From Bacteroides sp. (GTDB taxonomy: Bacteria; Bacteroidota; Bacteroidia; Bacteroidales; GCA-2748055), in contig DSEO01000153.1 of NCBI GenBank assembly GCA_011056635.1, forward strand, positions 7,563 through 71,562: a stretch of DNA of 64,000 bases, written 5' to 3'. Of the stretch, positions 34,426 to 64,000 are shown piece by piece. The position numbers were made by a program, and so were the translations under genes. The stretch's first letter is position 1. Each line of letters starts with the position of its first letter. Under the pieces are notes generated by a model. It saw nothing but the letters and a program-made list of their open reading frames with translations, had not been told where the DNA came from and ran no database searches.

Positions 34426-34696
34426 TACAGCGGTTATCTTAAACAGTTATTATATTTGTCAATCCACATTCTAAAATTCAAGTCGCTCACCAATCCATCA
34501 ACTTCCCCAAATGCATTCGATTGTCTATCTTTGATCTACGCATTTTTTAAAGCCTGGCCATTGGCTAAATTTAAAAAAAAAAATAATTATCTCTGCTATG
34601 ATGGTTGTTTGGTGTTTTTTTACAGCAATATTTGCTTTCCTTCTTCATCCTTATGTTTTCATTGGCTATTATTGTTCAATCAATTATGATAGACCA

Positions 34697-41866: not shown

Positions 41867-41950
41867 TTTTCTCGTGGAGTATGATAATCCGGTGAATAAC
41901 GGGTAAAATTAAAAAAAAACGGCACAAATAATGGGAAGACCGCCGGAGAA

Positions 41951-43114: not shown

Positions 43115-43118
43115 TTTT

Positions 43119-46064: not shown

Positions 46065-46090
46065 AACAGATGATATAATATATATATGGT

Positions 46091-47347: not shown

Positions 47348-47359
47348 CACATTGCACAG

Positions 47360-48262
47360 ATGATGAATAGAAAGAGCGCATTGTATATCATCCCGGTGCT
47401 TTGCCTGATCGCAATACAGGGCCCGGCACAGAAGAAAGTAACAGCCGAAAAGCTGGGCGATAAGATCGAGATCAGGATCAACGGGGACCTGCTGACAAAT
47501 TACATCCTTTCCACATACGAGAAATATCCTTTCTTTTTCCCGGTGAACGGTCCCTCGAAGGCAAGTGTAACCTCCATGAGGAATGCCAATTACCCCCATC
47601 ACAGTTCCCTTTTCTTCGGGTGTGACCGGGTAAACGGGGGCAATTACTGGCAGGAGGGACTGGACGAGGGACAGATCATTCCCCTGAGGGCCGATATCCT
47701 GGAATCGGGAAGTGACAGGGTGGTCATTGAGAATGAAAATATCTGGAAACGGCCAGGGGCCATGGCACCCATCAGGGATGTGCGGACCATCAAGGTTACT
47801 GCTCCTTCCGATGCGATGTACCAGATCGACTTTGAGATCATCATGGAAATGTTGATGGATGTGACCATCGAAAAAACGAACCACTCGCTCCTGAGCGTAA
47901 GGATGGACCCTGACCTGGCCGTCACCAACGGGGGAACCATGGTGAATGCGGAAGGCGAGACCGGGGAGAAGGACACCTTCGGGAAACGCTCTCCGTGGAT
48001 GGACTATCACGGAGCCCGGATGGGTACCAAAGAAGGCATTGCCATTCTTCAGCACCCGTCCAATGAATGGTTCCCGGCACCCTGGTTCACCCGGGATTAC
48101 GGTTTTTTTTCTCCCACACCCATGTACTGGCCTGAAAACGGGAAGAATACGGTACTGCAAAAAGGCCGGCTGCTGAAACTGCGGTACAGGGTCCTGGTAC
48201 ATACCGGCGATCATCAGGAAGCCGGCATTGCGGCCCAGTTTGAAAAGTACAGCGGCGAATAG
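47360..48262 (+). CDS. PmoA-like / DUF6807 family protein, secreted (short form)
   Basis: Signal peptide MMNRKSALYIIPVLCLIAIQGPAQ. Family core YPHHSSLFFGCDRVNGGNYWQ. Confidence 0.65.
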   Translation: MMNRKSALYIIPVLCLIAIQGPAQKKVTAEKLGDKIEIRINGDLLTNYILSTYEKYPFFFPVNGPSKASVTSMRNANYPHHSSLFFGCDRVNGGNYWQEGLDEGQIIPLRADILESGSDRVVIENENIWKRPGAMAPIRDVRTIKVTAPSDAMYQIDFEIIMEMLMDVTIEKTNHSLLSVRMDPDLAVTNGGTMVNAEGETGEKDTFGKRSPWMDYHGARMGTKEGIAILQHPSNEWFPAPWFTRDYGFFSPTPMYWPENGKNTVLQKGRLLKLRYRVLVHTGDHQEAGIAAQFEKYSGE

Positions 48263-48310
48263 GCCGGATCATCATGAATGCATGTTCAATCCTATAAAAA
48301 CCATAAACCC

Positions 48311-49687: not shown

Positions 49688-49733
49688 ATTTATGAAGTTA
49701 TCTCTTGGCCAATTAAAAAGTTTTTGTAACTTG

Positions 49734-49749
49734 TTGCAACCGATTGCAT
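49734..49749. promoter_or_regulatory. LacI-family-type operator candidate TTGCAACCGATTGCAT upstream of SusC
   Basis: 15 of 16 nt are identical to the reverse complement of 44985-45000. It lies 54 nt upstream of the SusC ATG (49803). Confidence 0.65.
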
Positions 49750-49802
49750 AAGCAAATCAAATAAACCAACCCAATTTACCTAACTAATCTAAAACTAATT
49801 CT

Positions 49803-52739
49803 ATGAAAAAAAATCTTCTATTCTTTTTCTTCGGAATCACCTGCAGCCTATTCTGCATGCAATCATTTGCGCAGGTAAGGACTGTGACAGGTGTGGTCAC
49901 AGATGCTGCCACCGGAGAGCCCCTCATCGGGGTGAACATCGTGGTCGAAGGGACCACCATCGGAACGATCTCGGATTTGAGTGGAAACTATTCAATCTCT
50001 GTGCCGTCGGCCGAATCGATCCTTGATTTCTCTTTTGTGGGTTACACCACCCAGCAGGTTCCGGTGGGAAACCAGACTGAGATCAACGTGGCGCTTGAAC
50101 CCGGGGCCGTCGGCCTGGACGAGCTGGTGGTTATCGGATACGGTACCCAGCGCAGGGGAAGCATCACAGGGTCCGTTAGCTCGGTATCTTCCGACGACAT
50201 CCAGGAGCGGCCCGTTCTGAATGCGGGCCAGGCGCTCCAGGGAAGGGCTCCCGGCGTGGTTGCCCTGTCTAACGGGGGAAGCACACCCGGAACCGATGTG
50301 ACCATCCGGATCCGTGGCCGCAGATCGCTGACCGCCACCAACGAACCGCTGTACGTAGTGGACGGAATTCCGTGGCAGGGAAGCATTACAGGGCTCAACC
50401 CCAGGGATATCAAATCCATGGAGGTCCTGAAAGATGCTTCAGCCACCGCCATCTACGGATCCAGGGGCGCCAACGGGGTGATATTGATCACCACCTACCG
50501 GGGCGGGAACATGCCCACCACCGTATCCTATTCGGGACACTATGGCGTCTCCAGTGTGCTGGCTGTGCCCGATCTGATGAACGGTGAAGAGTACTACAGG
50601 CTGAAAGAGGTGGGAGGACGCGCTTTCACCCAGGCAGAACTGGATGCCTATGCAGCCGGAGTATCCACCGACTGGGTGGACCTGGTGCTGGGTAACGGCT
50701 ACCAGACCAACAACCAGCTGAGCATCCGGGGAGGCAATGAAAATACTGCCTATGCCATGTCGGCAAACTTTTTCAAAGAGGGCGGTGTGATCGAATTGCA
50801 GGACTACACCCGGAAAACCTTCCGCGTGAACCTGGACCACCAGGCCAACAAGTGGCTCAAAGTGGGGACATCCACCCAGGTGCTGAAAGGACTGCAGAAT
50901 GTAGGCCCCAACACCTACGGGGGCGCCTGCAACATTTCACCGCTGGCCGAACCCTATGATGCCGAAGGGAACCTGATCTTCCGTCCGGGTGCCGACCCGC
51001 TGCTCTGGAACCCGCTGGCCGATTACGAAGAGAACATCAGCCTCGATGAACGGGAATCTTTCAGGGTGTTCAGCAATATCTTCGCTGAGGCCGACATCCT
51101 GAAGAACCTGAGTTACAGGATGAACTTCGGACCCAGTCTCCGGGAGTACAGGAGGGGCGTTTTCCGGGGGAGCAATTCCAGCTCCCGCCAGGGAGGAACC
51201 CCACTGGTCCGCAAGGAACACCAGCGGATTTACGAGTACACATTCGAGAACATCCTGACCTACGACCTGGTAACGGACAATCACAACCTGAATTTCACCG
51301 GTCTTTACAGTATCCAGGAGTCCAATGCGGAAGAGACATTCATAGAAGTGGAGAACATCCCCTATGAAACACAGCAGTACCACAACCTGGGAACGGCCGA
51401 GACGGTGAACGATATGGGAAGTGACCTTTCCGAGTGGGGGATCATGTCTGTCATGGGCCGTGTGAACTACGAGCTGATGGGCAAGTATATGCTGACCCTG
51501 ACCGGCCGCTGGGACGGTTCGTCCAGGCTGGCAGAAGGCAACAAATGGGGATTCTTCCCCTCCGTGGCCGCCATGTGGCGGATCAGCAGCGAAAGTTTCA
51601 TGTCAGGACAGGACCTGTTCAACGACCTGCGCCTGAGGGCCAGTTACGGGATCACCGGTAATACGGGGATCGACCCCTACCAGACCCGGGGATCACTCAG
51701 CAGGAGTTTTTACAATTTCGGCGACAATGCGGGACTGGGCTTCAGGCCGGGAACCCTGGCCAACCCCGATCTGCGCTGGGAATCCTCTGCCACGACCAAC
51801 ATCGGACTGGATTTCGGGCTGATGCAGGGCCGCATCGTGGGTACCTTCGAGGTATACAACACCCATACATCCGACCTGCTGCTGGAAAGGCAGCTGCCCA
51901 TCACTTCCGGCTTTAACTCGGTGTTCGAGAATGTCGGTGAGACCCGCAACAGGGGCTGGGAACTGGGCCTGACCACCCGGAACATTGCCACCGGTGATTT
52001 CAGCTGGGAGACCAACCTGAACCTGTTCGGCAACAAGGAAGAGATCCTGGAGCTGTACGGAACGGGAGAGGATGATGTCGGCAACGAGTGGTTCATCGGT
52101 GAGCCGCTTACAGTCTGGTATGATTACGAGAAAATAGGGATCTGGCAGCTCGGTGAAGAAGATGCTGCTTCCGTCTATGCACAGTATCCGGGTGAGATCA
52201 AGATCAAGGACCAGGATGACAACGGTGTCCTGAACCAGGACGACAGGATCATCCTCGGCTCGGACATGCCCAGCCTGACCGTCAGTCTGGGATCCCGCCT
52301 GGAGTATAAGGGAGTCGACTTTTCTTTCATGCTGCTGGGTGTTTTCGGCCATACGGTGTACAACCGTTACCTCAGAGACAGGAGCACGCTGCAGGGAAGG
52401 TACAACAACCTGAATGTGGACTACTGGACCGAGACCAATCCCACCAATGAGCATCCCAAACCCGATGGTTCAAGGGAATACCCGCTTTACGAGACCACAA
52501 GGTGTTATTACCCGGGCGACTTCTTCAAGATCAAGAATGTGCAGCTGGGTTACAATATTCCGCGCACCGTGCTGTCCAATGTGGGTGTCAAGAAGCTGAG
52601 ACTCTATCTGAACCTGGATACATTCTTCATCTGGTCGCACCTGCAGAAGGGACTGGACCCGGAGAAATACGGAGGTGACATATCAGCCGATGTTCCATCG
52701 ACCCGCATGTATTCATTCGGGCTAATGGTTGATTTTTAA
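49803..52739 (+). CDS. SusC-like TonB-dependent transporter
   Basis: Signal peptide. CarbopepD_reg-like domain (VTGVVTDAATGEPLIGVNIVVEG). Plug (VVDGIPWQG...GSRGANGVILITT). Barrel ending in SFGLMVDF. Confidence 0.9.
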   Translation: MKKNLLFFFFGITCSLFCMQSFAQVRTVTGVVTDAATGEPLIGVNIVVEGTTIGTISDLSGNYSISVPSAESILDFSFVGYTTQQVPVGNQTEINVALEPGAVGLDELVVIGYGTQRRGSITGSVSSVSSDDIQERPVLNAGQALQGRAPGVVALSNGGSTPGTDVTIRIRGRRSLTATNEPLYVVDGIPWQGSITGLNPRDIKSMEVLKDASATAIYGSRGANGVILITTYRGGNMPTTVSYSGHYGVSSVLAVPDLMNGEEYYRLKEVGGRAFTQAELDAYAAGVSTDWVDLVLGNGYQTNNQLSIRGGNENTAYAMSANFFKEGGVIELQDYTRKTFRVNLDHQANKWLKVGTSTQVLKGLQNVGPNTYGGACNISPLAEPYDAEGNLIFRPGADPLLWNPLADYEENISLDERESFRVFSNIFAEADILKNLSYRMNFGPSLREYRRGVFRGSNSSSRQGGTPLVRKEHQRIYEYTFENILTYDLVTDNHNLNFTGLYSIQESNAEETFIEVENIPYETQQYHNLGTAETVNDMGSDLSEWGIMSVMGRVNYELMGKYMLTLTGRWDGSSRLAEGNKWGFFPSVAAMWRISSESFMSGQDLFNDLRLRASYGITGNTGIDPYQTRGSLSRSFYNFGDNAGLGFRPGTLANPDLRWESSATTNIGLDFGLMQGRIVGTFEVYNTHTSDLLLERQLPITSGFNSVFENVGETRNRGWELGLTTRNIATGDFSWETNLNLFGNKEEILELYGTGEDDVGNEWFIGEPLTVWYDYEKIGIWQLGEEDAASVYAQYPGEIKIKDQDDNGVLNQDDRIILGSDMPSLTVSLGSRLEYKGVDFSFMLLGVFGHTVYNRYLRDRSTLQGRYNNLNVDYWTETNPTNEHPKPDGSREYPLYETTRCYYPGDFFKIKNVQLGYNIPRTVLSNVGVKKLRLYLNLDTFFIWSHLQKGLDPEKYGGDISADVPSTRMYSFGLMVDF

Positions 52740-52759
52740 TTGATAACGGATGCTAAAAC

Positions 52760-54490
52760 ATGAGAAAAATGAAAAAAATTAAATATCTAATTTTAGTAGT
52801 TTCCGTCGCATTGGTGTCCGGTGTCTCCTGTGATGTCCTGGAAGAAGAGATCATTTCGGGAATCACCGTGGATACCCATTACAGCACACCGGATGGATTC
52901 GAAGATGCGGTGAATGCCGCTTATGAAAGGTTCCGGTATTTCTACGGCAATGAAGACGGAGGAGAGATCACGGTATTCGGAACCGATGAATACACCAACG
53001 GAGGACATGGCGGGGCCCAGTTCATCAACAAGTATATCGCGGGCCTTGACGGGTCATCCGGTACTTTCTGGAATCCCTGGCAACACTTCTACATCGGGAT
53101 CAACACCTGCAATGCGGTGATCGGCCGCGCCCCGGATGCAGATATTCCGGAAGCGGAAAAGGCCGTCATGGTGGGCGAGGTTAAATTCCTCAGGGCCCAG
53201 TATTACTTTCACCTGGTCCAGTTCTGGGGCCCGGTCCACCTGACCCTGGAAGAGACGATCGGGGTGGAGACCGAGGCCCGAAGGGACCCCGAAAGCGATA
53301 TCTATGATGCCATCATTGCGGACCTGGAGGATGCCATTGATGTGCTTCCCATGAAACAGGCTGAATGGGGCAGGATCACCAAACCGGCAGCACAGCACGC
53401 GCTTGCACATGTGTACCTGACCAGGGCCTACCAGCCTTTCGGAGAGGGAACGCAGGATTTCAGCCGGGCAGCCGACCTGGCCGTGGATGTGATCAATAAT
53501 TCGGACCGTGAACTGCTGGATGATTTCCAGCGGGTCTACAATTCGGATGACGGCAGCGGGGGACTGGTCCACAATGCCGAGAGTGAACAGAACAACGAGA
53601 TCATCTGGTCCATCCAGTTTTCCAGTGATATGATGCTGAACGGTGACGGGAACCAGTCCCATCTCCACTTCAGACCTTGGTACGAGACATTCAATGACGG
53701 ACTGGACCGGGCCCTGGGTCACGGCTACGGCCGTCCCTGGATCCGTTTCAGGCCGACCCCCTGGATGCTGGAAAATTTCAGGCCGCTGGATGTGGATTCC
53801 AGGTTCGAGAAATCTTTCCAGATCGTATGGCTGTACAACACGGAAAATAACATTCCGGAAGGTGCTTCGGTAGGAGACACCGCCATCTGGATCACGGACA
53901 AGACCGCGGCCGAGTTTGACACAGCCGCCGTCCGTGCACGCCTTCCCGGTGTCAACCTGTTCACCTGGAACCTGGAGGAAATTGACCGCGACTGGTGCCT
54001 CTGGAGAACCGATGTTTCTGTGAACGCGCCCCACATCAACATCTTCCCGTGCCCCTGGAAGATCGATGACAACCTGCGGCCTTCGCTGAATGAGCAGAGA
54101 GGTTCACGCGACTACATCGTTTACAGGCTGGGCGAAACCTACCTGATTGCCGCCGAGGCCATGCTGGGCAGGGATGGCAACGGGAGCGCTGCCATGCAGT
54201 ACATCAATGCCCTCAGGGAAAGAGCTGCCTATCCGGGCAAAGAAGCCCAGATGCATGTTGGTGCAGGAGACATTGACCTGGATTTCATCCTGGACGAGTG
54301 GTCCAGGGAGTGCTTCGGGGAACAGAGCAGATGGCTTGATCTCAAACGGACAGGGAAACTGCTGGAGCGCGTCCGGGCATACAATCCCGATGCGGCACCC
54401 AACATCAAGGATTTCCACGTGTTGCGTCCAATCCCTGAGAATCAGATTACCCGGACTACCAACGATTACGGACAGAATCCGGGATACTAG
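52760..54490 (+). CDS. SusD/RagB-family outer-membrane lipoprotein
   Basis: Lipobox ALVSGVSC. SusD features include ECFGEQSRWLDLKR near the C-terminus. Directly downstream of SusC. Confidence 0.85.
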   Translation: MRKMKKIKYLILVVSVALVSGVSCDVLEEEIISGITVDTHYSTPDGFEDAVNAAYERFRYFYGNEDGGEITVFGTDEYTNGGHGGAQFINKYIAGLDGSSGTFWNPWQHFYIGINTCNAVIGRAPDADIPEAEKAVMVGEVKFLRAQYYFHLVQFWGPVHLTLEETIGVETEARRDPESDIYDAIIADLEDAIDVLPMKQAEWGRITKPAAQHALAHVYLTRAYQPFGEGTQDFSRAADLAVDVINNSDRELLDDFQRVYNSDDGSGGLVHNAESEQNNEIIWSIQFSSDMMLNGDGNQSHLHFRPWYETFNDGLDRALGHGYGRPWIRFRPTPWMLENFRPLDVDSRFEKSFQIVWLYNTENNIPEGASVGDTAIWITDKTAAEFDTAAVRARLPGVNLFTWNLEEIDRDWCLWRTDVSVNAPHINIFPCPWKIDDNLRPSLNEQRGSRDYIVYRLGETYLIAAEAMLGRDGNGSAAMQYINALRERAAYPGKEAQMHVGAGDIDLDFILDEWSRECFGEQSRWLDLKRTGKLLERVRAYNPDAAPNIKDFHVLRPIPENQITRTTNDYGQNPGY

Positions 54491-54512: not shown

Positions 54513-54555
54513 GCTGCCTTCCGGGAATATGAGGTGCCCCGGAAGGCAGCTTTTT
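54513..54555. terminator. Bidirectional hairpin terminator between convergent SusD and ampG-like genes
   Basis: Perfect 13-bp stem GCTGCCTTCCGGG / CCCGGAAGGCAGC with a 12-nt loop, followed by TTTTT on the + strand. It lies 23 nt after the SusD stop and 4 nt after the ampG-like stop. Confidence 0.75.
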
Positions 54556-56360
54556 CATTTCTTCTCCCTCCGGCCGAAGGAGGGATCGATCCTCAAAAAG
54601 GGGACGATGATGAAACCGGGGATGGTGCAGAGAACGACCCAGATAAAGAAATGCCGGTAACCCAACATCTCCTGGAGCCATCCGCTGATCATTCCAGGCA
54701 GCATCATGCCCAGCGCCATGAATCCGGTGGTGATGGCAAAATGGGCGGTTTTGTGTCTCCCTTCCGATACATAGATCATGTAGAGCATGTAGGCCGTGAA
54801 ACCGAAACCGTATCCGAACTGTTCCACGGCCACGGAAGCCCCCACGATCCAGAGCGATGAAGGCATGGTGAATGAAAGGAAGACATAGACCAGGTTGGGC
54901 AGGTTCATGGCAATGACCATCCACCAGAGCCAGTACTTCAGTCCCTTCCTGGACGCCGCGATCCCCCCGATGATCCCCCCCAGCGTAAGGGCGATGATCC
55001 CGATGGTCCCGTAAACCAGGCCCAGGTCACCCGTGGTCAGCCCCAGTCCCCCGTCTTCATTCGAATCCAGCAGGAAAGGTGATGCAAGTTTCACGAGCTG
55101 CGATTCTCCCAGCCGGTAGACCAGCAGGAAGAGCAGGATCACGGCAATGTGTTTTTTTCTGAAAAATTCCGCGAAGGTGGTGATGAATTCCCTGAAAAAT
55201 CCAGTTTCACCGCTTTCACCGGGTTTGTCCTCCTCCGGCCTTGGCAGGATGAAGCGGTGATAGAGAAAAAAACCGGCAAAGATGAGGGCGATGATGGCAA
55301 ACACGATGGACCAGGCCAACCGGATGTTGCCGCTGAGGCCTGTAAAGGTGGCTTCGGTGGAACGATCCAGCTTCGGATCCAGCTGGAAGAGTGCAAATGC
55401 GGGAAGGTTCCAGTTCATTTCGGTGAATTCGAACCGGTAACTTTTCACCAGTCCGATGCTTTTATCTCCCCTTTCAAAACTGAAATTAAGCACGATGCGT
55501 TCCCCTTCTTCCGGTTTTTTGCCCGGGCGAAACCAGGCCAATCCCATATTCCCTGTCCTGCCCCCGATATCCGGCTGCAGGGAAGGCTCATCCGCCCCCG
55601 AATAAAACAGGTGTTGCCTGTTCCATGCCTCCACGCGGGCCACCAGTTGTTTAGCCGAATCGACCGGGATCAGGTCCGTTCCGATCTCCACCGCTCCCAC
55701 TGTGAAGAATGCGTTGACCGCCGTATCGGCTCCCGTAACGATCTTCCCCGGATCAAAGGAGGGGATCCCTGTCTGTCCGGATGCGGTGACCGTCACCTCC
55801 ACCGGGGGGAGACCGGTCCTCGCTTCAAAATGACCGGCCAGGATCACCAGCAATCCCTGTCCGGTGAGCATGGCAATGCGATAGAACGTGCTGCGGATGC
55901 CCACGAAAAAAGCCTGGTCATGCCTGGAAAGCCCCAGCATGTAGAACCCGTCCGCTGCAATATCATGGGTTGCCGAGCTGAATGCCACCAGCCAGAAAAA
56001 GGCCAGCGTATACTGGAAAAACCTGGAAGCGGGGATGGTCAGTGCCACACCTGCCAGTCCCGCCCCCACGCAGAGCTGCATGACCAGGATCCAGAACCGC
56101 TTGGTCTTCAGCAGATCCACCACGGGACTCCAGAGCGGTTTGATCACCCAGGGCAGATAGAGCCAGCTGGTGTACAATGCAATATCGGCATTGGAAATGC
56201 CCATTCGTTTGTAGAAGATCACAGACAGGGTCATCACAAGCACATACGGGATCCCCTCCGCAAAATAGAGGGAGGGCACCCACAGCCAGGATCGTGCCCT
56301 GCCGGTTCCGGGTTTCTGTGTTTCGGGGGGATTATTCATAACATTTCCGGATGGTTGCAT
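54555..56360 (-). CDS. ampG: AmpG-family muropeptide MFS permease with a ~170-aa insertion in the central region
   Basis: AmpG-type N-terminus (WLWVPSLYFAEGIPYVLVMTLSVIFYKRMGISNADIALYTSWLYLPWVIKPLWSPVVD). Hydrophobic helices flank a hydrophilic block at about aa 178-345. Confidence 0.75.
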   Translation of the reverse strand: MQPSGNVMNNPPETQKPGTGRARSWLWVPSLYFAEGIPYVLVMTLSVIFYKRMGISNADIALYTSWLYLPWVIKPLWSPVVDLLKTKRFWILVMQLCVGAGLAGVALTIPASRFFQYTLAFFWLVAFSSATHDIAADGFYMLGLSRHDQAFFVGIRSTFYRIAMLTGQGLLVILAGHFEARTGLPPVEVTVTASGQTGIPSFDPGKIVTGADTAVNAFFTVGAVEIGTDLIPVDSAKQLVARVEAWNRQHLFYSGADEPSLQPDIGGRTGNMGLAWFRPGKKPEEGERIVLNFSFERGDKSIGLVKSYRFEFTEMNWNLPAFALFQLDPKLDRSTEATFTGLSGNIRLAWSIVFAIIALIFAGFFLYHRFILPRPEEDKPGESGETGFFREFITTFAEFFRKKHIAVILLFLLVYRLGESQLVKLASPFLLDSNEDGGLGLTTGDLGLVYGTIGIIALTLGGIIGGIAASRKGLKYWLWWMVIAMNLPNLVYVFLSFTMPSSLWIVGASVAVEQFGYGFGFTAYMLYMIYVSEGRHKTAHFAITTGFMALGMMLPGMISGWLQEMLGYRHFFIWVVLCTIPGFIIVPFLRIDPSFGRREKK

Positions 56361-57771
56361 TCCTGTAATAATGCAGGAGGATCTGGTGGTAGGTATACCC
56401 CCTGTCTGCCATCACCGCCGCACCGATCTGGCACAGTCCCACCCCGTGCCCCCAGCCGGCCCCGTGCAAGATGAATTTTCCAGGCACTCCCTCCCTGAAT
56501 CCTTCCTTTTGCACCGTGAATGCCGCACTGTAAAGGTGTGACCGGCTCAGCCAACGCCTGATCTCCAGTTCCTTCCCGATGGTGATGGTCTGCTGGGTTC
56601 CCACGATCTTCAACCGGACCAGCCTGGCCGATGCACCACGTTCCACCGGCACAAGGTCCAGGATCTTCCCGAAATCCCGCCCCGATTTCTCCCGGACCAG
56701 CGCTGCAAGTTCCTCCTGGCTGTAAGACACCTGCCAGCGAAAAAAATCCTTCGAAGCCAGGTCATAATCGTTGAGCACCATTCCGAGCAATTCCCTGTCG
56801 GATGTATTGCAGAATGCTTCCGGCCTGCTGCGGATGTATGCAACCGCGTTCCTTTCGACACGCAGGTCCGGGATCGCTCCTCCCGCGGTCTCCGGTCTGT
56901 CCGGCACGGGCTGCAGGTATGGATGCGGCACCTCCTCCCAGCAATGCTCATACCGTTCGGTGATTCCACCGCAGCATTTGGAAAACCGGGCATCGCAGAT
57001 CTCATCCCCGTAAAACAGCACTTCCCCGGCAGTGCTTTGCACCGCCCCGGCCACTTCGGGATGGTGTGCACGGGTAATCCCCTGGTAGCGCTGACAATGG
57101 TCATCGGCACACACATCGAATGTATCATGATCCTCCCGGTCGTACCACCGGATCAGCTCCTCCCCGGTTTCACGCATACTTTGCTTCCGGGGCCCGTTCC
57201 CGTCCAGGGCATTCTTTCTTTCCATCTGGGCCAGCAGCCAGCTCCGGGAAATGACCGCATGGGCTTTCAGAAATTCGGGCGGACTGCCGGCATTCATTTC
57301 CGAAGAAATGACACTGGCCAGGTAGCTTTCCACGGGGATCTCGTTGATCACCTGGATAAGGCCATCCAGGATCTCCAGCACCAGGGTCCCCCGAAATCTC
57401 TGGTCCTCCCTCCGCTCCCAGTGGAATCCGATCCCGATCACCACATCGAAGAGCTCAAAATACGCGGAATCCGGCTCACGGGGCTCGAACAGGATGGTTC
57501 CGGAAGGGGCGGCGCCACCGGGAGAAGCAGCGCCACCAGCAGTGGCAACACCGGGGGAGGTGATCCCGGGGGAGGTGATCAGCCGCGTTTCCTGCATGAC
57601 CTCCACGCGGCCGTTCCGGATGCCTGCCTCGCCGCTTCCCGACCATGGTTCGCCGCTCCCCGGTGTCAGGTATTGCCCGTTCAGCTGAAAACGGATGCTT
57701 GCGGCCCTGAGGATCCCCACCCGGACGCGGGGTGACCTGTCTCCCGTTATATGTCCTTCACCCCTAATCAT
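56332..57771 (-). CDS. SpoIID/LytB-domain protein (no recognisable signal peptide)
   Basis: SpoIID motifs PPEFLKAHAVISRSWLLAQ and DVCADDHCQRYQG. The N-terminus MIRGEGHITGDRSPRVRVG is hydrophilic. The start overlaps the upstream stop by 4 nt (ATGA). Confidence 0.75.
   Translation of the reverse strand: MIRGEGHITGDRSPRVRVGILRAASIRFQLNGQYLTPGSGEPWSGSGEAGIRNGRVEVMQETRLITSPGITSPGVATAGGAASPGGAAPSGTILFEPREPDSAYFELFDVVIGIGFHWERREDQRFRGTLVLEILDGLIQVINEIPVESYLASVISSEMNAGSPPEFLKAHAVISRSWLLAQMERKNALDGNGPRKQSMRETGEELIRWYDREDHDTFDVCADDHCQRYQGITRAHHPEVAGAVQSTAGEVLFYGDEICDARFSKCCGGITERYEHCWEEVPHPYLQPVPDRPETAGGAIPDLRVERNAVAYIRSRPEAFCNTSDRELLGMVLNDYDLASKDFFRWQVSYSQEELAALVREKSGRDFGKILDLVPVERGASARLVRLKIVGTQQTITIGKELEIRRWLSRSHLYSAAFTVQKEGFREGVPGKFILHGAGWGHGVGLCQIGAAVMADRGYTYHQILLHYYRNATIRKCYE
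57551..57580. repeat. Perfect 15-nt tandem duplication inside the SpoIID-like CDS
   Basis: CCGGGGGAGGTGATC occurs twice in a row. It encodes ITSPG-ITSPG within a Gly/Ala/Ser/Pro-rich linker. Confidence 0.9.
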
Positions 57772-58730
57772 TTTTTATGGCTCCATGCGGATACAAGGTG
57801 GTCGAGCAATGCCCCGAAGCGGTCCTCACGCATGGAAACCTGTGCGAAGATGTCCCTGATGTCATCCCCGGAGATCTGATTGAAATCCTTCTCAAGGGGC
57901 GTGATCAGCAGGCCTCCCAGGTCCACTGCGGCCGGACTGAGCAATATGTTCTTTTCTCCCTTTTCGAAAAATTGGCGGGGACGGTGCCTGTCCCGCGGAA
58001 AGACAAAAATCTGCCACCGGTCGCTGTAATATGCCAGGATATTGAGCATGGATTCGCCTCCCTCCCGAAGCTGCTTTGTAAAATCATCAATGGGGATGAA
58101 TGCATCCTTGATCCGTTCCTTCACATCCGATTCCAGCAGGATCATGCGCCTCAAGCCGTCATCCATGGCCACGGCTGTAAATCCCGGGGATTCTGCCACC
58201 GGTTTGCCATATCTTTTTACCAGGACCGGCAATTCCTCCTCGATGGGAAGGATCCCCCTGCTGCCCGCCTGGAAATGCATGTGGTCCGGTGCGGATGCCC
58301 CGCAATCCGGTCCGTTGTAAAATACCACCAGTCCGGGCAGGGCCCTGCTCAACTCAAGCAGCCATGTGACTTCGGTTCCGATGACCTGCGGGGTATGCAC
58401 GGTCCTGGCGATGGTGAGATGTTCCCTGAAAATGGGGAAGGGATTGCAGAGGATCTCGTAGGCATTGCCGAATTTCAGGGACTTTTGCTGCGGGGGACGG
58501 TTTTCGGCGCAGAGGAAACACTTCCTGTGTTTCACGGATACGGGATCGACCTTTGCCGCAGAAGAGGTGATCCGCGCGGGATTGAATTGCACCCGCATGG
58601 TGAAATCCCCGAATTGAATGGTCCTCAGGCGCACGTCCTCCAGCTTTGCATGGTTATACCCGAGCAGCGGCCAGGCCCTCAATTGCGATTCATAAAATGC
58701 ATTGACTCTTTCCTGGTATTCCATCACCAT
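57768..58730 (-). CDS. DUF4922-like protein with GalT/GDP-L-galactose-phosphorylase-type HIT motif
   Basis: 320 aa containing APDHMHFQAG (the H-x-H-x-Q motif of the GalT branch of the HIT superfamily). No signal peptide. It overlaps both neighbouring genes. Confidence 0.55.
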   Translation of the reverse strand: MVMEYQERVNAFYESQLRAWPLLGYNHAKLEDVRLRTIQFGDFTMRVQFNPARITSSAAKVDPVSVKHRKCFLCAENRPPQQKSLKFGNAYEILCNPFPIFREHLTIARTVHTPQVIGTEVTWLLELSRALPGLVVFYNGPDCGASAPDHMHFQAGSRGILPIEEELPVLVKRYGKPVAESPGFTAVAMDDGLRRMILLESDVKERIKDAFIPIDDFTKQLREGGESMLNILAYYSDRWQIFVFPRDRHRPRQFFEKGEKNILLSPAAVDLGGLLITPLEKDFNQISGDDIRDIFAQVSMREDRFGALLDHLVSAWSHKK

Positions 58731-60199
58731 TGCGCGCCTTTCTGATTGATCCGGATCCTTGCGTTCAGCTCGATGGTACGCAGGCGGTCCTTGTACGCAT
58801 CGTGCCTGTTCCTCGCTTCCGCGCTGAGGGTAGCATCCGTGTTATCTTCCCACCGCCTGCACAGGTACATGGGCCGGTAGATCCTTCCGATGCGGTAGTA
58901 TCTGCTGATGGCCAGCGCCACCCCGTAATCCTCCCCGTAACTTACATTGGGGATGTTGATCTGTCGCAGCACCGGTGTGAAAAAAGCCCGCGGAGCACCC
59001 AGTCCGTTGATGCGGAGTGCATTGTTCCTGCCGTTTTCCGGCGTCCACTCCCTGTGGTCCACGATCCCCGGCGGGATCTCCTCCAGGTCGAAGCTGGTCA
59101 CCCTGTAAGACCCGATCACCATGGCACACCGCTCCTCATAAAACGTCCGGACGATCTGTTCCAGGACCGAATCATCGTTGTACAGGTCATCGCTGTCCAG
59201 CTGGACCGCGAACCTGCCGCATGCGGCATGATGCACCGCTTCATTCCAGCAGCCCCCGATCCCCAGGTCCTTTCTCCCGGGAATGAGATGGACCAGGTTC
59301 GCATATTTTTCCCCGGCCTTTCTGACGATCTCCGTGGTCCGGTCGGTGGAGTGATTGTCCACAACGATCAGGTTGTATGCAAAGCCGGCCTTCTGGCGCA
59401 TGACCGATCCGATGGCATCGCCAATGGTCCTTTCCCGGTTCAGAACGGGAATGATCACGGAAGCTTCCGCTTCAAAGCTGCCTTCATCGAGGGACACCTC
59501 CCGGAAACGGGGTGACAGGTATGCCCCGGCATCCTGCAGATGGAGGGTGACGGCCCGCTCCATTTCCTGCTGTATTTCCCTGCCGGCAGGATCCAGGTAA
59601 TCGAAGATACTTTTCCCCGGATCTGCGACATCCGGCCGGTCCACCGTGTACAGATATTCCGGGATGCGTACCACCGGGCAATGGCGACTGATCTTCAGGC
59701 GCAGCATGTAGAGCCCTGCATGCCTGAAAGACTCGGGTATCCCTTCGGCGGCTTTTCGCAGCGCCGGGCTGCTGAAGAACAGGATGGGGCCGAAATCAAA
59801 ATCATCCCGCAGACTTCCCTGCTGGTAATCGATCACCGGATGGGGCGAAAGTTTCCCACCGGACAGGTCCAGGTGATCCGCATACACGATCCCCGCATCC
59901 ATGTCCCCCGCCACCGACAGGAACCGCTCGATGGCGAACTGTCCCAGCCGGATGGCAACCTGCCTGGTCACCACCATCGCATGGTCTGCCCCGGATGCAT
60001 ACCGGCTGATGGTACGGATGGTTTCCGTACCGAACAGTCCGTCTGTCCGGACAAACGTGCATTTTTCAACGGAAGGTCCCGTCTCTTCCTGTCCCAGCAG
60101 GAAAATCCGGCGTACATGGGGATGGGCCGAGAGCTCCTGCAGGAAGTCCGTCCGGGCCTCCGGTCCCTGCGCGGGTATGAAACAGTGAATTGTGCTCAT
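58724..60199 (-). CDS. Family-2 glycosyltransferase with ~230-aa N-terminal extension
   Basis: GT2 core ASVIIPVLNRERTIGDAIGSVMRQ...NLIVVDNHSTDRT...QLDSDD in the C-terminal half. No signal peptide or TM segment is seen. Confidence 0.75.
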   Translation of the reverse strand: MSTIHCFIPAQGPEARTDFLQELSAHPHVRRIFLLGQEETGPSVEKCTFVRTDGLFGTETIRTISRYASGADHAMVVTRQVAIRLGQFAIERFLSVAGDMDAGIVYADHLDLSGGKLSPHPVIDYQQGSLRDDFDFGPILFFSSPALRKAAEGIPESFRHAGLYMLRLKISRHCPVVRIPEYLYTVDRPDVADPGKSIFDYLDPAGREIQQEMERAVTLHLQDAGAYLSPRFREVSLDEGSFEAEASVIIPVLNRERTIGDAIGSVMRQKAGFAYNLIVVDNHSTDRTTEIVRKAGEKYANLVHLIPGRKDLGIGGCWNEAVHHAACGRFAVQLDSDDLYNDDSVLEQIVRTFYEERCAMVIGSYRVTSFDLEEIPPGIVDHREWTPENGRNNALRINGLGAPRAFFTPVLRQINIPNVSYGEDYGVALAISRYYRIGRIYRPMYLCRRWEDNTDATLSAEARNRHDAYKDRLRTIELNARIRINQKGAQW

Positions 60200-60206
60200 C
60201 GATTTT

Positions 60207-63191
60207 TCAGTTCAGCAGGTACTCCAGGATCCTGGCCATGATCATATCCCGCTCCCCGGGATCGATAATGGTCTCGAACGGGAACCCGAAGGCCACCACG
60301 TTCCAGGCTCCTTTCCAGGCCACCGCGGCGCTCATGTTATTCTCCGCATACCTTGCCAGGGTAAAGGCAGTGGAATCGGCAGGCTCCAGTGCATCGGCGC
60401 CTTCCACCACATAGATATCAGGATGATATGCCGTGTTGAAACTGTACCGGGTCTGCACCTCCGAAAAACCGGGGTCCATAAAATAGAACTTTCCCAGCCG
60501 GGAGGCGTTGCCGGTCCTCCATTTGTATTTCAGCAGCACTGCCACCAGGGAATCCTGCCCGAGGGAATGGGGATCGGATGCAATATGGGCCCCTGAAATG
60601 AACATGTTCCCGCCCCCCTCAAGGTATTTCGAAATGACCGTGAGAAGCGTGCCGGGAAAGACCTGAAACCAACCGACGGTGTCATTTTTGGGCATATGGG
60701 TGGTCTTCTCCTCGCCGGCGATAAAATCCACCGCGTCATACACTCCCAGTTCCGCCTCACCATCTTCCACCGTTTCATCGCTGACCGATACGAAGGAGTA
60801 GCCGGCTGCCCTGACGGAAACCCCGTGCACGTAGCAGAAGTCAAAACTGTTCCCGGGATACACATCCTGTTCAAGATCCGCGTACGAAGCTCCGTGTCCG
60901 GGTGAATCATCATCCAGCCAGGGTGAGCGCTCGCTGAAATCGAACTGGGCACCCACCGTATGGAGATCTTCCTGAAAAGGAACACCCTGATCCACCATAT
61001 GCAGGAACCCCGAATGCGCCTCGTCGTCGAACCAGGCCGGACCGCCGGTCCTGTCAAATGCGCTGATAAGCAGGATGGTCCTGTCCGATCCGGTCCTTTT
61101 GCACACGGAAAGGACCTCTGAAGGAAAGCTTTCACCTCCCCTGTTCAGGGCGGTGACCCTGAAGGAGTAAATGGAATCGGGAGCGCACTGCGGCAATGAA
61201 AAGGTGGTTCCCTCCACGCTGATCCCCTGGTCCCACCCTTCCCCGTTGATCCTGGTGTACACCCGGTAGCTATCCGGATCCGCTGTGGGCTCAAGGGGAT
61301 CGGCCCGGGGCTTCCAGTGCAGGTTGATCCCTCCCTGCCCGCTGAATTCAGAGCGAAAGGAGCGGACCGGAAGCGGCTGCACCACGGTCTCGAAATCGTA
61401 CAGCTCAGCCAGGAACCGCAACATTCCCTTGTAGATCGCCCGGCATACATCAAACCTGAAAGCGGGTTCACTGCCGAAACGCATATCCATGAGGTTCTGG
61501 TGGGAAAGCAGCTCAAGCAGCATGGAGGGGACATTGGGCCGGTAAGCCTCGCTGTAATCCCGGTCCCACATAGCCCTCCTTACCCAGTCAGGGTCATATT
61601 TGGCCCGGATATCCTCCACGATCTGGGTCTGGATCAGATCGGTCATATCCCGGGAAGCCATTCTGGAGAGCCCGCCAGGAAAAAATCCCCGGTTCGACCG
61701 GGTGCTGTAGATCCCCAGGGTACCGATGACCGTATCGCTGCCGCTGATCCCCGCATCCGTATGAAAGGCAAAAGAAAGATCGATGGGGATGCCCAGTCCC
61801 GTTACACCCCTCCCCTTCGCAGGACCCGATAAATTGCCTGCCAGGTAATTGACCCACTCACCCCGGCTCTGGTAATCGTCTGTATAATCGTTCACGGGTG
61901 TATTGAGCCTCCACACCAGGCTGTCTGGAAAACCTGCATATTGCAGGTAATAACGGGCCGATTCCTGGTAACGGGGACGGTTGCTGGTGAGTCCGTTCCT
62001 GGAAATATTGCCCGTACCTCCGCCGAACCTCACCGCATCGGCGGAAATGCTTGCGTTGCGGCGACTGCTTTTATTGGTAAGTACCACCTGGCCTTTCCCG
62101 GCATGGATCCCCCCGGGGAACCGGAACCTCCCCAGGTATACCCAGGTTCCCCCGCCCATCTGCTGATTCACGGAGAATTCCGTCCTCCCCCCTGCGTGAT
62201 ACACCGTATAACGTACATCGTCCGCATTGGCGGGGGATGCATGGTAGGACACGTAGACCGCGTAATACCCCTCTGCCGGAATATCGGGGATCCAGGTCAC
62301 CATCCCGGTACCGTTCCGGTCCGAACCCATCTCCTGGTAACTCCCCAGTGTGAATGGATTTTCATCCACATAGGGGGGATGCCCGATACCGAAACCCGTT
62401 CCGGGGACGGACTGTATGGCATTTTCCGTACTGAAGCAGATACTGTTCCCTGTGCTCCCGTCATTGTCCACCACCACCTCGTTCACCTGCCAGTCACGTT
62501 CCCGCGGAAGGAATACATTCGCTCCCGCATTTTCAAGCATGGGGACCAGCAACTGGAGGTTAAAAGCCATGGGAAACAGGTCCTCCACAGTCTGGAAGAT
62601 CCTGGCACGCTGCCATTCCCAGCGGTGCAGCGAAGGTTCGTAATACCAGCCGTGGCTGTGCCACAGTGCGATGTTCGTATGGTAGAGGGATGCATCGGAG
62701 AGATAAGGCCTGGAAAGGTTTTGCACCAGCGGCGGGGATTTCCTTTTCAGTCGCCCCACCACGCGGTCCCTGTCCTTGTCTCTTCTGTCCGTCCTGTAAT
62801 AATTGGGTATGTACTCCCGGATGTTCCTCCTGCAGGACCAGATCTCCAGGTCATATGTATTGAAAGGAAACGGAAGGTCTTCTTTCAGGCCATCTTCAAA
62901 AAACTGGATGGTCCGCTCCCTGAGCGGGGCATAGGCCAGTCTCGCATCCAGGTGAACCCGGATGTTACTTTTTCTTGCGTCAATGAGCACGTTATCGATC
63001 CGGATCGAGTCCTTTTGCTGATAACCGGTCAATTCGACGAACAGCCGTCCGTTGAAATATTTCTGCACATTCCTTTCCAGCTGCTCCATGACCAGGGAAT
63101 CCCCGGATGCATATATCGCACGGGCACCGAGGAATGGGGAGAGCATAAAAGAAAACAGCAGGGTGAAAACCCATCTTCGGAAAATAAACAT
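60207..63191 (-). CDS. Secreted ~1000-aa protein with MurNAc-L-Ala-amidase-like (Amidase_3-type) and golvesin-C/Xly-like regions
   Basis: Signal peptide MFIFRRWVFTLLFSFMLSPFLGARA. The block YAVYVSYHASPANADDVRYTVYHAGG...GGTWVYLGRF resembles the golvesin-C-like module. FAFHTDAG and MLLELLSHQN resemble amidase_3 metal and Glu motifs. The family assignment is tentative. Confidence 0.45.
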   Translation of the reverse strand: MFIFRRWVFTLLFSFMLSPFLGARAIYASGDSLVMEQLERNVQKYFNGRLFVELTGYQQKDSIRIDNVLIDARKSNIRVHLDARLAYAPLRERTIQFFEDGLKEDLPFPFNTYDLEIWSCRRNIREYIPNYYRTDRRDKDRDRVVGRLKRKSPPLVQNLSRPYLSDASLYHTNIALWHSHGWYYEPSLHRWEWQRARIFQTVEDLFPMAFNLQLLVPMLENAGANVFLPRERDWQVNEVVVDNDGSTGNSICFSTENAIQSVPGTGFGIGHPPYVDENPFTLGSYQEMGSDRNGTGMVTWIPDIPAEGYYAVYVSYHASPANADDVRYTVYHAGGRTEFSVNQQMGGGTWVYLGRFRFPGGIHAGKGQVVLTNKSSRRNASISADAVRFGGGTGNISRNGLTSNRPRYQESARYYLQYAGFPDSLVWRLNTPVNDYTDDYQSRGEWVNYLAGNLSGPAKGRGVTGLGIPIDLSFAFHTDAGISGSDTVIGTLGIYSTRSNRGFFPGGLSRMASRDMTDLIQTQIVEDIRAKYDPDWVRRAMWDRDYSEAYRPNVPSMLLELLSHQNLMDMRFGSEPAFRFDVCRAIYKGMLRFLAELYDFETVVQPLPVRSFRSEFSGQGGINLHWKPRADPLEPTADPDSYRVYTRINGEGWDQGISVEGTTFSLPQCAPDSIYSFRVTALNRGGESFPSEVLSVCKRTGSDRTILLISAFDRTGGPAWFDDEAHSGFLHMVDQGVPFQEDLHTVGAQFDFSERSPWLDDDSPGHGASYADLEQDVYPGNSFDFCYVHGVSVRAAGYSFVSVSDETVEDGEAELGVYDAVDFIAGEEKTTHMPKNDTVGWFQVFPGTLLTVISKYLEGGGNMFISGAHIASDPHSLGQDSLVAVLLKYKWRTGNASRLGKFYFMDPGFSEVQTRYSFNTAYHPDIYVVEGADALEPADSTAFTLARYAENNMSAAVAWKGAWNVVAFGFPFETIIDPGERDMIMARILEYLLN

Positions 63192-63272
63192 ATCAGGATA
63201 TCAACTTTACTTTACAGCACTACCATTCACACAGCATAAAACTAACATATATTCGGGTACCCTGTAATTTTT

Positions 63273-64000
63273 TTACCGACAGGGGTAAAGATAATATTTC
63301 CGGGCCTTCTTCATGAAATCCTCCCTTTCCCTGCTGTCGCCCCGCCAGATCTCCAGCGCTTTTTCAATATCCCCTTCCATGATCGATTGCCTTACCCGGT
63401 CTGTTCCGCACACCCGGTCGAACGAACCGTACTGCGCTTCCCTGCCCAAAAATACATCGAAGGCTGGGGCAACTTTCACCGCATCCTGGAGGAAACGGAA
63501 CTGGATTTCGGTGAGTACAGCCTGCTGAAGGTCGGTCAGGTAGATCTGCACCCCCTGCAGCGCTTCTCCCTTTTTTGCCATATAATAGGGCTTCAGGTAA
63601 ATTGGACGAAAAATAACGCCTTCCAGGCCCCTGTGGTTCATGGTATCCGCCAGGGCTTCCGCATCCATTTGAGCGGTGACAAGTGTCTGAAAAGGAAGGG
63701 TATAACCGATCCCGACCATGTTTGGATCCAGTTCCCCCAGAATGCCTGTGGCCGCATTGTAAAACACGGTCCGCTCATCCGGAATGTGGGGAGAAGTGGG
63801 CACCCACAGCAGCCCGGTCCTGTCAAAGGTCATCTCCCTTTCCCACCCTTCCATGGGCACCACCTGCAGGCTGCACCGCCTGCCTCCCTCGAGCATCCCC
63901 TCCCCGTTCAGCATCAGCGCCAGCTCACCGCAGGTCATTCCGTACAGATAAGGGATGGCGTACCGGCTTACAAAGGAACGGAATCCCTCCTCCGCCAGGC
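63273..64000 (-). CDS. namZ: DUF1343 / NamZ-type exo-beta-N-acetylmuramidase family, C-terminal part; 5' end outside window
   Basis: The frame stays open to the window edge (upstream codons ...SRYAIPYLYG precede MTCGELALMLNGE). WVPTSPHIP and the C-terminal DUF1343 layout are present. Confidence 0.65.
   Translation of the reverse strand, partial: LAEEGFRSFVSRYAIPYLYGMTCGELALMLNGEGMLEGGRRCSLQVVPMEGWEREMTFDRTGLLWVPTSPHIPDERTVFYNAATGILGELDPNMVGIGYTLPFQTLVTAQMDAEALADTMNHRGLEGVIFRPIYLKPYYMAKKGEALQGVQIYLTDLQQAVLTEIQFRFLQDAVKVAPAFDVFLGREAQYGSFDRVCGTDRVRQSIMEGDIEKALEIWRGDSREREDFMKKARKYYLYPCR

Follow-up and report, generated by a model that had tools for sequence, protein, structure and literature searches.

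A conserved, sometimes fused trio of a glycosyltransferase, a HIT-type enzyme and a SpoIID-like protein in a probable peptidoglycan-salvage operon of Bacteroidota

A cluster of six consecutive open reading frames (ORFs) occupies positions 54555-64000 (minus strand) of a 64,000-nucleotide stretch of DNA from a Bacteroides sp. (contig DSEO01000153.1 of assembly GCA_011056635.1), hereafter the window. These genes very probably form one operon for the salvage of glycan strands from peptidoglycan that is either foreign or turned over, and the locus is a further member of the operon type published for Tannerella forsythia, not a new kind of system. What is new here is that three of its products, a family-2 glycosyltransferase (GT2), a HIT-type enzyme with a DUF4922 domain and a protein with a SpoIID/LytB domain, are a conserved unit that is sometimes fused, is cytoplasmic and occurs in two phyla. 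On the basis of genomic coupling, it is fairly probable that the three make up one cytoplasmic module, coupled physically or functionally, which acts on the cargo of the AmpG-type permease encoded with them. Domains were assigned by Pfam and NCBIfam profile searches against curated cut-offs, and the features are listed below in the order of transcription, with lengths in amino acids (aa).

63273..64000 (continues past the window end), minus strand: NamZ-like exo-beta-N-acetylmuramidase (GH171); PF07075 NamZ_N and PF20732 NamZ_C above cut-off
60207..63191, minus strand: secreted 994-aa protein with Golvesin_C and fn3 domains; Pfam matches, signal-peptide-like N-terminus
58724..60199, minus strand: soluble 491-aa GT2 with two GT-A-like domains; PF00535, AlphaFold model and Foldseek
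57768..58724 (first ATG at 58730, 320 aa), minus strand: 318-aa DUF4922/GDPGP1_C protein, a predicted nucleoside diphosphate (NDP)-sugar phosphorylase or nucleotidyltransferase; PF16269, fold model
56332..57771, minus strand: 479-aa SpoIID/LytB-domain protein, lacking both a signal peptide and a transmembrane (TM) helix; PF08486, TIGR02669
54555..56339 (alternative start at 56360, 601 aa), minus strand: 594-aa AmpG-like permease of the major facilitator superfamily; MFS_1, best NCBIfam family TIGR00901
55329..55817, minus strand: ~160-aa insert of the AmpG-like permease, in its central loop between TM6 and TM7; TIGR00901 match split in two

An earlier note on this DNA had described six minus-strand genes here, and all of them are present at the positions and in the order that it gave. 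The overlapping start and stop codons that it reported for the last four genes were likewise read directly from the sequence. The stop codon TGA of the GT2 gene lies inside ATGGTGATG of the DUF4922 gene, an overlap of 7 nucleotides (nt) if the first ATG is used and of 1 nt for the ATG of the gene caller, which yields the 318-aa product. The DUF4922 and SpoIID-like genes share ATGA, a 4-nt overlap, and at the junction of the SpoIID-like and AmpG genes, ATGAATAA, the overlap is 8 nt (gene-caller ATG, 594 aa) or 29 nt (first ATG). A spacer of 7 nt, also read from the sequence, separates the gene for the 994-aa protein from that for the GT2. Promoter- and terminator-like sites inside the cluster were as frequent as expected from shuffled sequence, in a scan that does not model Bacteroidota promoters. 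The same region lies on the 177-kb metagenome source contig (L001), where the stop codon of a gene for a DUF2254 membrane protein (437 aa, L001 2880-4193) overlaps the start of the NamZ gene by 4 nt. The operon is thus longer than the six genes first described, continuing upstream past the window end, and its transcript probably starts outside the window. GH97 and GH2 genes precede the DUF2254 gene on L001. On its downstream side the AmpG gene is abutted by a convergent SusC/SusD locus.

The unity of the trio is apparent from other genomes. In a scan of one genome per species, 80 loci were kept with 10 kb on either side, none of them from T. forsythia, and the six window proteins were mapped on them. 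The GT2 gene lies directly upstream of the DUF4922 gene in 47 of 50 Bacteroidota loci, with three more nearby, and in all 16 loci from Ignavibacteriota; the two also adjoin on single metagenome-assembled genome (MAG) contigs of Acidobacteriota and Bacillota. A SpoIID-like gene follows directly downstream in 35 of 47 Bacteroidota loci (three more nearby) and in 0 of 16 Ignavibacteriota loci (two nearby). Of the remaining partners, AmpG occurs in 42/47 and 1/16 loci of the two phyla, respectively, NamZ in 18/47 and 1/16, and homologues of the 994-aa protein (33/47) and MurQ-like genes (24/47) were seen in none of the 16 Ignavibacteriota loci. At both junctions of the trio, start/stop overlaps of 4 nt predominate across the loci. 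Massilibacteroides and one Tannerellaceae MAG have the order GT2, DUF4922, AmpG, NamZ, without SpoIID. The gene order is thus conserved outside this genome, a point on which the earlier note had made its proposal depend, across Bacteroidota and, for the GT2-DUF4922 pair, also in Ignavibacteriota.

Members of the trio are also found joined in single polypeptides, all confirmed with Pfam. GT2-DUF4922 fusions (P0387, 806 aa; P0471, 785 aa; P0490, partial) and DUF4922-SpoIID fusions (P0282, P0311, P0356/P0472, P0454, P0466 and the truncated P0383 and P0371) both occur, and in P0427, P0495 and P0503 a GNAT domain stands N-terminal to DUF4922. These fusions are mutually diverged and in frame, have varied linkers, and one of them lies in the usual Golvesin_C and GT2 context (L084); they are therefore not artefacts of assembly. 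Natural fusions of this kind imply that GT2, DUF4922 and the SpoIID-like protein are one functional unit, and they provide an independent argument that the SpoIID-like domain is cytoplasmic. In P0438 an exosortase (EpsH)-like membrane domain precedes DUF4922, as a real fusion or a gene-calling artefact.

The SpoIID-like protein scores 86.4 bits with PF08486 (cut-off 23) and 174.6 bits with TIGR02669 (cut-off 83.3), and falls below the SpoIID equivalog TIGR02870 (124.9 bits against a cut-off of 234.75). The absence of a signal peptide or TM helix, noted earlier, is upheld: hydropathy analysis revealed no hydrophobic segment or TM helix in the protein. An upstream in-frame start that could add a signal peptide was looked for and is excluded, because the ATG at 57771 is preceded, at a distance of two codons, by an in-frame TAA, and no longer N-terminus is possible. 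None of ~55 SpoIID-like homologues from other genomes, each taken as its longest possible ORF, has a signal-peptide-like N-terminus, and all of them start a few residues ahead of a conserved P-x-I-x-V-G-I strand. When this hydropathy measure is applied to the predicted periplasmic neighbours (GH9+CE4, GH3+beta-lactamase-fold, Metallophos+PQQ, 3-keto-disaccharide hydrolase and RlpA-like proteins), each of them shows a clear signal peptide. The extracytoplasmic location by which the SpoIID/LytB class is defined is accordingly not found for this protein. In the NCBI annotation the gene (protein P0241) begins at the internal Met59, giving 421 aa; the 479-aa start is favoured because the N-terminal strand is conserved in homologues. 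A low-complexity insert rich in Gly, Ala, Pro and Ser (~aa 60-95) is present only in close relatives.

The SpoIID-like enzyme looks catalytically intact from its sequence. An SSEM motif (57295-57306) contains E158, which aligns with the S-E-M of the SpoIID structures 4rwr and 5i1t, and an H-x5-C-x3-H-C motif (57085-57129) comprises H215, C221, H225 and C226; E158 and this cluster are invariant in 30 homologues. We take E158 to be the SpoIID catalytic glutamate, and the Cys/His cluster presumably occupies the position of the zinc site of the Clostridioides difficile enzyme.

The DUF4922 protein matches PF16269 at 200.5 bits, and the precomputed annotation of an identical database protein adds PF26216 GDPGP1_C. 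Its HMHFQ motif (HxHxQ; 58269-58283; H148-M-H150-F-Q152) is invariant among homologues, as are C69-x-x-C72 of the CFLC motif at 58509-58520 and H110; we assume that C69/C72, H110 and HMHFQ are the counterparts of the GalT zinc ligands and nucleotidyl-histidine motif. Sequence and profile searches of the PDB matched no solved structure. The AlphaFold model (pLDDT 85.7) has as its best fold match in Foldseek the yeast Ap4A phosphorylase Apa2 (E 1e-9, TM-score 0.56-0.61), followed by a DUF4931 protein and then by GalT-type uridylyltransferases, and because of this succession of matches the protein is placed among the HIT enzymes of the GalT/Apa branch. The claim of a HIT motif of the GalT/GDP-L-galactose-phosphorylase type thereby stands, both by the invariance of the motif and by the fold. 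From the model, the protein is predicted to move a nucleoside monophosphate between phosphate or sugar-phosphate acceptors. The GDP-D-glucose phosphorylase GDPGP1/mcp-1 and plant VTC2/GGP have DUF4922 as their domain, and in a literature search it was linked only to eukaryotic GDP-L-galactose/GDP-D-glucose phosphorylases, with no bacterial or peptidoglycan link found. The family is large: clustering at 90 % identity leaves more than 7,000 clusters, 1,974 representatives remain at 50 % identity, and members occur in at least 592 species genomes.

In the GT2, PF00535 (77.3 bits, cut-off 23.3) covers residues 247-387 only. The AlphaFold model (pLDDT 85) consists of two alpha/beta domains, aa 1-187 and aa 245-450, connected by a long helix. 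Its full-length Foldseek matches are the K4 chondroitin polymerase K4CP (2z86/2z87, E 3.5e-20), PmHS2, LARGE1 and LH3, while single-domain GT2 enzymes match far worse (8e-13); the GT-A fold also matches 6p61, TarS and TarP. Because the best full-length matches are tandem GT-A enzymes, the N-terminal region is assigned as a second GT-A-like domain. The cytoplasmic placement given before is retained (no TM segment by hydropathy), and what had been called a 230-aa N-terminal extension is revised to this folded domain. The TM-scores against the tandem polymerases are low (~0.4) because the domain orientation differs. The N-domain is strongly conserved among homologues, with many invariant residues, and has no Pfam match and no clear DxD or ED motif. 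When the N- and C-domains were compared with hhalign, they shared a single segment of 21 columns without significance (E 0.6), so an internal duplication cannot be claimed from the sequence. The C-domain carries the invariant motifs DSDD (335-338; 59186-59197), GEDY (422-425; 58925-58936) and CRRW (58850-58861), the last of which is possibly reminiscent of the QxxRW of beta-1,4-HexNAc/hexose synthases.

The remaining three proteins of the operon would supply the trio with substrate. NamZ_N and NamZ_C match the partial NamZ of the window (C-terminal 241 aa) at 81.3 and 87.5 bits, both above cut-off; on the source contig the complete protein has 420 aa and a signal peptide or N-terminal hydrophobic segment. 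For the 994-aa protein, described before as amidase-like and secreted, the size and the secretion stand and the amidase label is weak. Its sole match to a solved structure is the C-terminal domain of a Paenibacillus xanthan lyase (6f2p), and a split, weakly Amidase_3-like region lies at ~aa 170-250 and 460-600. Membership of Amidase_3 (PF01520) was rejected, as the score was 18 bits against a cut-off of 27 (E 0.003) even with the Golvesin_C insert excised. By sequence the protein is possibly a candidate periplasmic stem-peptide amidase, cleaving between N-acetylmuramic acid (MurNAc) and L-Ala. The permease has a profile of ~12 TM-like segments and scores 181 bits with TIGR00901, below the cut-off of 350, in two stretches around the insert; its AmpG function is inferred from the T. 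forsythia counterpart. Neither Pfam nor the PDB gave a match for the insert itself. About 30 related loci have it and ~12 cleanly lack it (e.g., Bacteroides ihuae, Massilibacteroides and Labilibaculum), and it could be a docking domain for cytoplasmic enzymes.

The likeness to the MurNAc-scavenging region of T. forsythia, pointed out in the earlier note, is correct: by domain content and gene order, compared with the published annotations, the locus is of the same type as Tanf_08345-08370. That operon encodes, in order, a xanthan lyase-like protein, two glycosyltransferases (gtf, gtf), lytB, ampG and ybbC/namZ1, forms one transcript with murTKQ that is activated by GppX, and was first labelled 'glycosylation related' (PMC5388701). 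The functions of Tanf_08345, 08350 and 08355 have been called 'unknown' and the gtf pair 'two putative glycosyltransferases'; TfNamZ1 frees the disaccharide of N-acetylglucosamine (GlcNAc) and MurNAc from peptide-free glycans, glucosamine (GlcN)-MurNAc also being released, and the stem-peptide amidase is 'so far unidentified' (bioRxiv 10.1101/2021.12.02.470905). TfAmpG imports GlcNAc-MurNAc and GlcNAc-1,6-anhydroMurNAc (GlcNAc-anhMurNAc), and extracts of the organism yield GlcNAc-anhMurNAc from peptidoglycan (PMC7670621). Growth of T. forsythia on GlcNAc-anhMurNAc depends on uptake by AmpG, although the organism has no predicted AnmK orthologue, and the step 'remains to be explored' (PMC7670621); because AnmK is lacking, this growth is unexplained. 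A literature check for a characterised pathway that contains the GT2 or DUF4922 protein found no such assignment. No paper was found that joins GlcNAc-MurNAc, a phosphorylase and AmpG, or that proposes phosphorolysis of an imported disaccharide.

The neighbourhoods of the related loci point to catabolism or salvage of peptidoglycan amino sugars. Recurrent in Bacteroidota are MurQ, above the cut-off of the equivalog TIGR00274, beside it a 282-aa protein that is probably MurK, and a NagX/DUF5009-like membrane protein, possibly MurT. Other recurrent neighbours are an FAD/FeS D-lactate-dehydrogenase-like protein, NagB with PIG-L, an SSF symporter, a GntR regulator and SusC/SusD, and, among periplasmic proteins, GH9+CE4, GH3+beta-lactamase-fold, GH18 and Metallophos+PQQ. 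Within the 10-kb flanks, no cytoplasmic glycosidase able to split the imported disaccharide is encoded, and no recurrent neighbour cluster matched AmgK/MurU or AnmK/NagZ. Flippase, lipid-carrier or polymer-export genes were not found in the loci either. In Ignavibacteriota the neighbours are mostly regulators and housekeeping proteins (CorA, a sigma-54 activator, a histidine kinase, STAS, a SpoIIE phosphatase), and only a divergently oriented gene for an RlpA-like lytic transglycosylase recurs (5 of 16 loci, against 1 of 47 in Bacteroidota).

Several loci have further genes within or beside the trio. A GH9+CE4 (polysaccharide deacetylase) fusion is encoded between the SpoIID-like protein and AmpG in L038 (5351-7822), L047 (12275-14746) and 11 other loci of Rikenellaceae type, which suggests that deacetylation comes first and is followed by cleavage at the glucosamine of the glycan strand. 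GNAT domains are fused to DUF4922 or encoded between DUF4922 and SpoIID in L018, L069 and L080. L016 and L030 have a gene for a signal-less, cytoplasmic SGNH/GDSL esterase between those for DUF4922 and SpoIID. In L080 such a gene is found 3' of AmpG, and a gene for an AmiA-like amidase stands between GT2 and DUF4922. In two Ignavibacteriota loci, L024 (5652-10927) and L060 (5937-10948), the order is SpoIID-like, GT4, GT2, DUF4922; the extra retaining GT4 was not seen in Bacteroidota loci.

An explanation of the whole operon in three layers, including a specific chemistry, can be offered tentatively. Its first layer is well supported, by the domain content, by the characterised AmpG and NamZ1 of T. 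forsythia and by the salvage genes of related loci: peptide-free disaccharides are made in the periplasm by NamZ together with the secreted 994-aa protein, which may be the missing MurNAc-L-Ala amidase, and AmpG imports GlcNAc-MurNAc and GlcNAc-anhMurNAc. In the second layer, supported by genomic coupling, this cargo would be taken over by the trio, none of whose members has a signal peptide or TM helix. The chemistry of the trio itself is a somewhat doubtful proposal. The inverting GT2 would work in reverse and transfer the non-reducing beta-1,4-GlcNAc of the disaccharide to a nucleoside diphosphate, and the HIT enzyme would phosphorolyse the resulting NDP-GlcNAc to GlcNAc-1-phosphate with regeneration of the NDP. 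GT2 and DUF4922, sharing only NDP-sugar and NDP, would thus amount to a two-protein disaccharide phosphorylase in which a glycoside and phosphate give a sugar-1-phosphate and the aglycone, the NDP is catalytic, the bond energy is kept, and a cytoplasmic NagZ is replaced. From GlcNAc-beta-1,4-(anh)MurNAc the pair would produce GlcNAc-1-phosphate, a substrate of GlmU, and free (anh)MurNAc. The SpoIID-like fold would act on the 1,6-anhydro bond of the freed anhMurNAc, opening it with water or another nucleophile, or forming it; in a variant, the bond would be formed from imported longer oligomers. Such a step would feed MurNAc to MurK/MurQ or AmgK/MurU in organisms that do not have AnmK. The chemistry is supported by the catalytic signatures kept in all three proteins (HxHxQ and CxxC in DUF4922; DSDD, GEDY and CRRW in GT2; the Glu and Cys/His residues in SpoIID), and the GNAT-DUF4922 fusions, together with the GNAT genes in the trio, point to an amino-sugar substrate (GlcN/GlcNAc), in keeping with the release of GlcN-MurNAc by TfNamZ1. 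Further support comes from the fold match of DUF4922 to phosphorylases and nucleotidyltransferases, from the loci encoding no cytoplasmic glycosidase for the disaccharide, and from the growth of T. forsythia on GlcNAc-anhMurNAc without AnmK.

Several points weigh against this explanation. The roles of all three proteins are predicted from sequence. The reverse glycosyltransferase step is uphill and is opposed by the UDP-GlcNAc pool unless another nucleotide or channelling is involved; this same difficulty would provide a rationale for tight coupling and fusions. Most GT2-DUF4922 pairs of Ignavibacteriota have no AmpG or SpoIID within 10 kb, so the role of the pair may be more general, and the GT4 in two loci of that phylum looks biosynthetic. 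The absence of NagZ and AnmK covers the 10-kb flanks, and copies may lie elsewhere in the genomes; the T. forsythia proteins are presumed to be orthologues from their published annotation. We know of no precedent for a lytic-transglycosylase fold that opens a 1,6-anhydro ring.

A more far-reaching form of the explanation, which is quite unlikely, makes the trio an ATP-free route, not described before, that converts the imported disaccharide wholly into two activated precursors, GlcNAc-1-phosphate and MurNAc-alpha-1-phosphate. Here the SpoIID-like enzyme would reverse the lytic-transglycosylase reaction, using the energy of the 1,6-anhydroMurNAc bond to form a MurNAc-beta-1,4-GlcNAc glycoside; the two-domain GT2 would be reversed at each of the two glycosidic linkages, with the nucleoside diphosphate acting catalytically, and the HIT enzyme would phosphorolyse both NDP-sugars, so that AnmK, NagZ and AmgK would not be needed. 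In this form the trio would contain the first glycoside phosphorylase built from a Leloir glycosyltransferase and a HIT phosphorylase.

The same genes can be read in the synthetic direction. DUF4922 would then make an NDP-amino-sugar, either from a salvaged sugar-1-phosphate and an NDP or by a GalT-like exchange (for example, UDP-GlcNAc + MurNAc-1-phosphate to UDP-MurNAc + GlcNAc-1-phosphate), as an alternative to MurU; GT2 would join sugars into a beta-linked disaccharide or oligosaccharide for trimming by the SpoIID-like enzyme. True transferases such as GalT exist in HIT branch III, the GT2 is similar to two-GT-A-domain synthases of alternating copolymers, and the GT4 of L024 and L060 and the pairs without AmpG in Ignavibacteriota are in keeping with synthesis. 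This reading is nevertheless unlikely, because the context is overwhelmingly one of catabolism and import (NamZ, AmpG, MurQ, the D-lactate dehydrogenase-like protein, SusC/D), the genes for a flippase, a lipid carrier or polymer export are missing from the loci, and it would be futile for the cell to make a cytoplasmic glycan only to cut it again.

If phosphorolysis by GT2 and DUF4922 is kept, the SpoIID-like protein might instead carry out the forward lytic-transglycosylase reaction in the cytoplasm, cutting imported tetrasaccharides or longer peptide-free oligomers to disaccharides. SpoIID acts on denuded glycans. The intact catalytic Glu and SpoIID-type Cys/His motif would suit such a reaction, the unusual 160-aa insert could change the specificity of AmpG, and the SGNH esterase beside the trio (L016 and L030, with the further copy after AmpG in L080) fits a need for a free MurNAc C6-OH. 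The probability of this arrangement is nonetheless low, since AmpG has been shown to carry disaccharides only, and the reaction would add anhMurNAc in organisms reported to have no AnmK (PMC7670621).

A periplasmic lytic-transglycosylase role is what the T. forsythia authors assume for 'TfLytB'. In such a scheme the SpoIID-like protein would be exported non-classically and make GlcNAc-anhMurNAc for AmpG, and GT2/DUF4922 would be an unrelated glycosylation pair on the same transcript. To our knowledge, all characterised SpoIID proteins act outside the membrane. The formation of GlcNAc-anhMurNAc from peptidoglycan by T. forsythia extracts indicates that a lytic transglycosylase activity exists (PMC7670621), and the first label of the operon was 'glycosylation related' (PMC5388701). 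Against export stand the ~55 homologues without a signal peptide, where every periplasmic neighbour has one, the in-frame stop two codons upstream of the start, and several independent in-frame fusions behind the C-terminus of a cytoplasmic HIT enzyme; the co-localisation of GT2-DUF4922 with peptidoglycan genes in two phyla speaks against an unrelated pair. Taken together, this makes the scheme very unlikely. Finally, GDPGP1 has been described as a quality control of the NDP-sugar pool, and DUF4922 might be a house-cleaning enzyme like this animal protein that removes an aberrant nucleotide sugar arising from salvaged amino sugars, with separate roles for GT2 and SpoIID, which is highly improbable as it leaves the invariant adjacency and the fusions with a particular two-domain GT2 and SpoIID unexplained.

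Elsewhere in the window, four co-directional genes at 41105-44923 (minus strand), 10 kb from the salvage operon, encode a creatininase-family amidohydrolase, a peptidase S58 (DmpA-like aminopeptidase), an Asp/Glu racemase and a LacI-type regulator, and could act in D-amino-acid or stem-peptide catabolism. The locus that converges on the AmpG gene (45033-54490, plus strand) is of polysaccharide-utilisation type and encodes a URO-D-like protein, two DUF6807 proteins, a GFO/IDH/MocA oxidoreductase with a TAT signal, SusC and SusD. Two SusC/SusD pairs, each with fasciclin-domain proteins, lie at 21111-34425 (minus strand), and a gene for a Porphyromonas-type peptidyl-arginine/agmatine deiminase at 34598-35875.

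MurNAc auxotrophs, among them the periodontal pathogen T. forsythia, are sustained by the salvage of peptidoglycan, which also shapes the feeding of gut and sediment Bacteroidota on dead bacteria. The locus, together with more than 590 species genomes that have the GT2-DUF4922 pair, names candidates for three steps of this process: the stem-peptide amidase, the splitting of the disaccharide after AmpG, and the use of anhMurNAc without AnmK. The evidence that the trio is one unit (fusions, translational overlap and conservation in two phyla) makes these questions directly testable. If the proposal is true, the pair would represent a new way to phosphorolyse a glycoside, and the SpoIID-like protein would be the first cytoplasmic enzyme with a lytic-transglycosylase fold.

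Among known systems, the T. forsythia operon shares the core order of a secreted 'xanthan lyase-like' protein, gtf, gtf, lytB and ampG, with NamZ on the same transcript; both operons are co-directional and tightly packed. By the published annotation, the 994-aa protein is the counterpart of the 'xanthan lyase' Tanf_08345, and the second gtf is presumably the DUF4922 protein. The NamZ gene, however, lies upstream of the 994-aa gene here and downstream of ampG there, murTKQ do not follow ampG here, where the convergent SusC/D locus is found instead, and the AmpG of the window has the 160-aa insert. The recycling pathway of Escherichia coli (AmpG-NagZ-AmpD-AnmK-MurQ) is similar in that AmpG imports GlcNAc-anhMurNAc, which is then broken down in the cytoplasm, and MurQ is encoded in related loci. 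On the other hand, the loci (10 kb on either side) contain no cytoplasmic NagZ, AmpD or AnmK, and the GT2/DUF4922/SpoIID trio stands in their place.

The individual members of the trio also have relatives. With VTC2/GDPGP1 and the GalT/Apa branch, the DUF4922 protein has in common the DUF4922 and GDPGP1_C domains, the HxHxQ and CxxC motifs and the Apa2/GalT fold, whereas it differs from VTC2/GDPGP1 in being bacterial, in its size of ~315 aa and in always being paired with a particular GT2. The GT2 model aligns over its full length with the tandem GT-A-like architecture of K4CP, PmHS2 and LARGE1, although it is much smaller and its N-domain has no recognisable DxD/ED. With the SpoIID proteins of Bacillus subtilis, Bacillus anthracis and C. 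difficile, the SpoIID-like protein shares the SpoIID domain, the Glu of S-E-M and the His/Cys cluster. In contrast to them, its subfamily has no signal peptide or membrane anchor, the protein possesses an extra conserved N-terminal domain of ~135 aa, and in several lineages its domain is fused to the cytoplasmic HIT enzyme.

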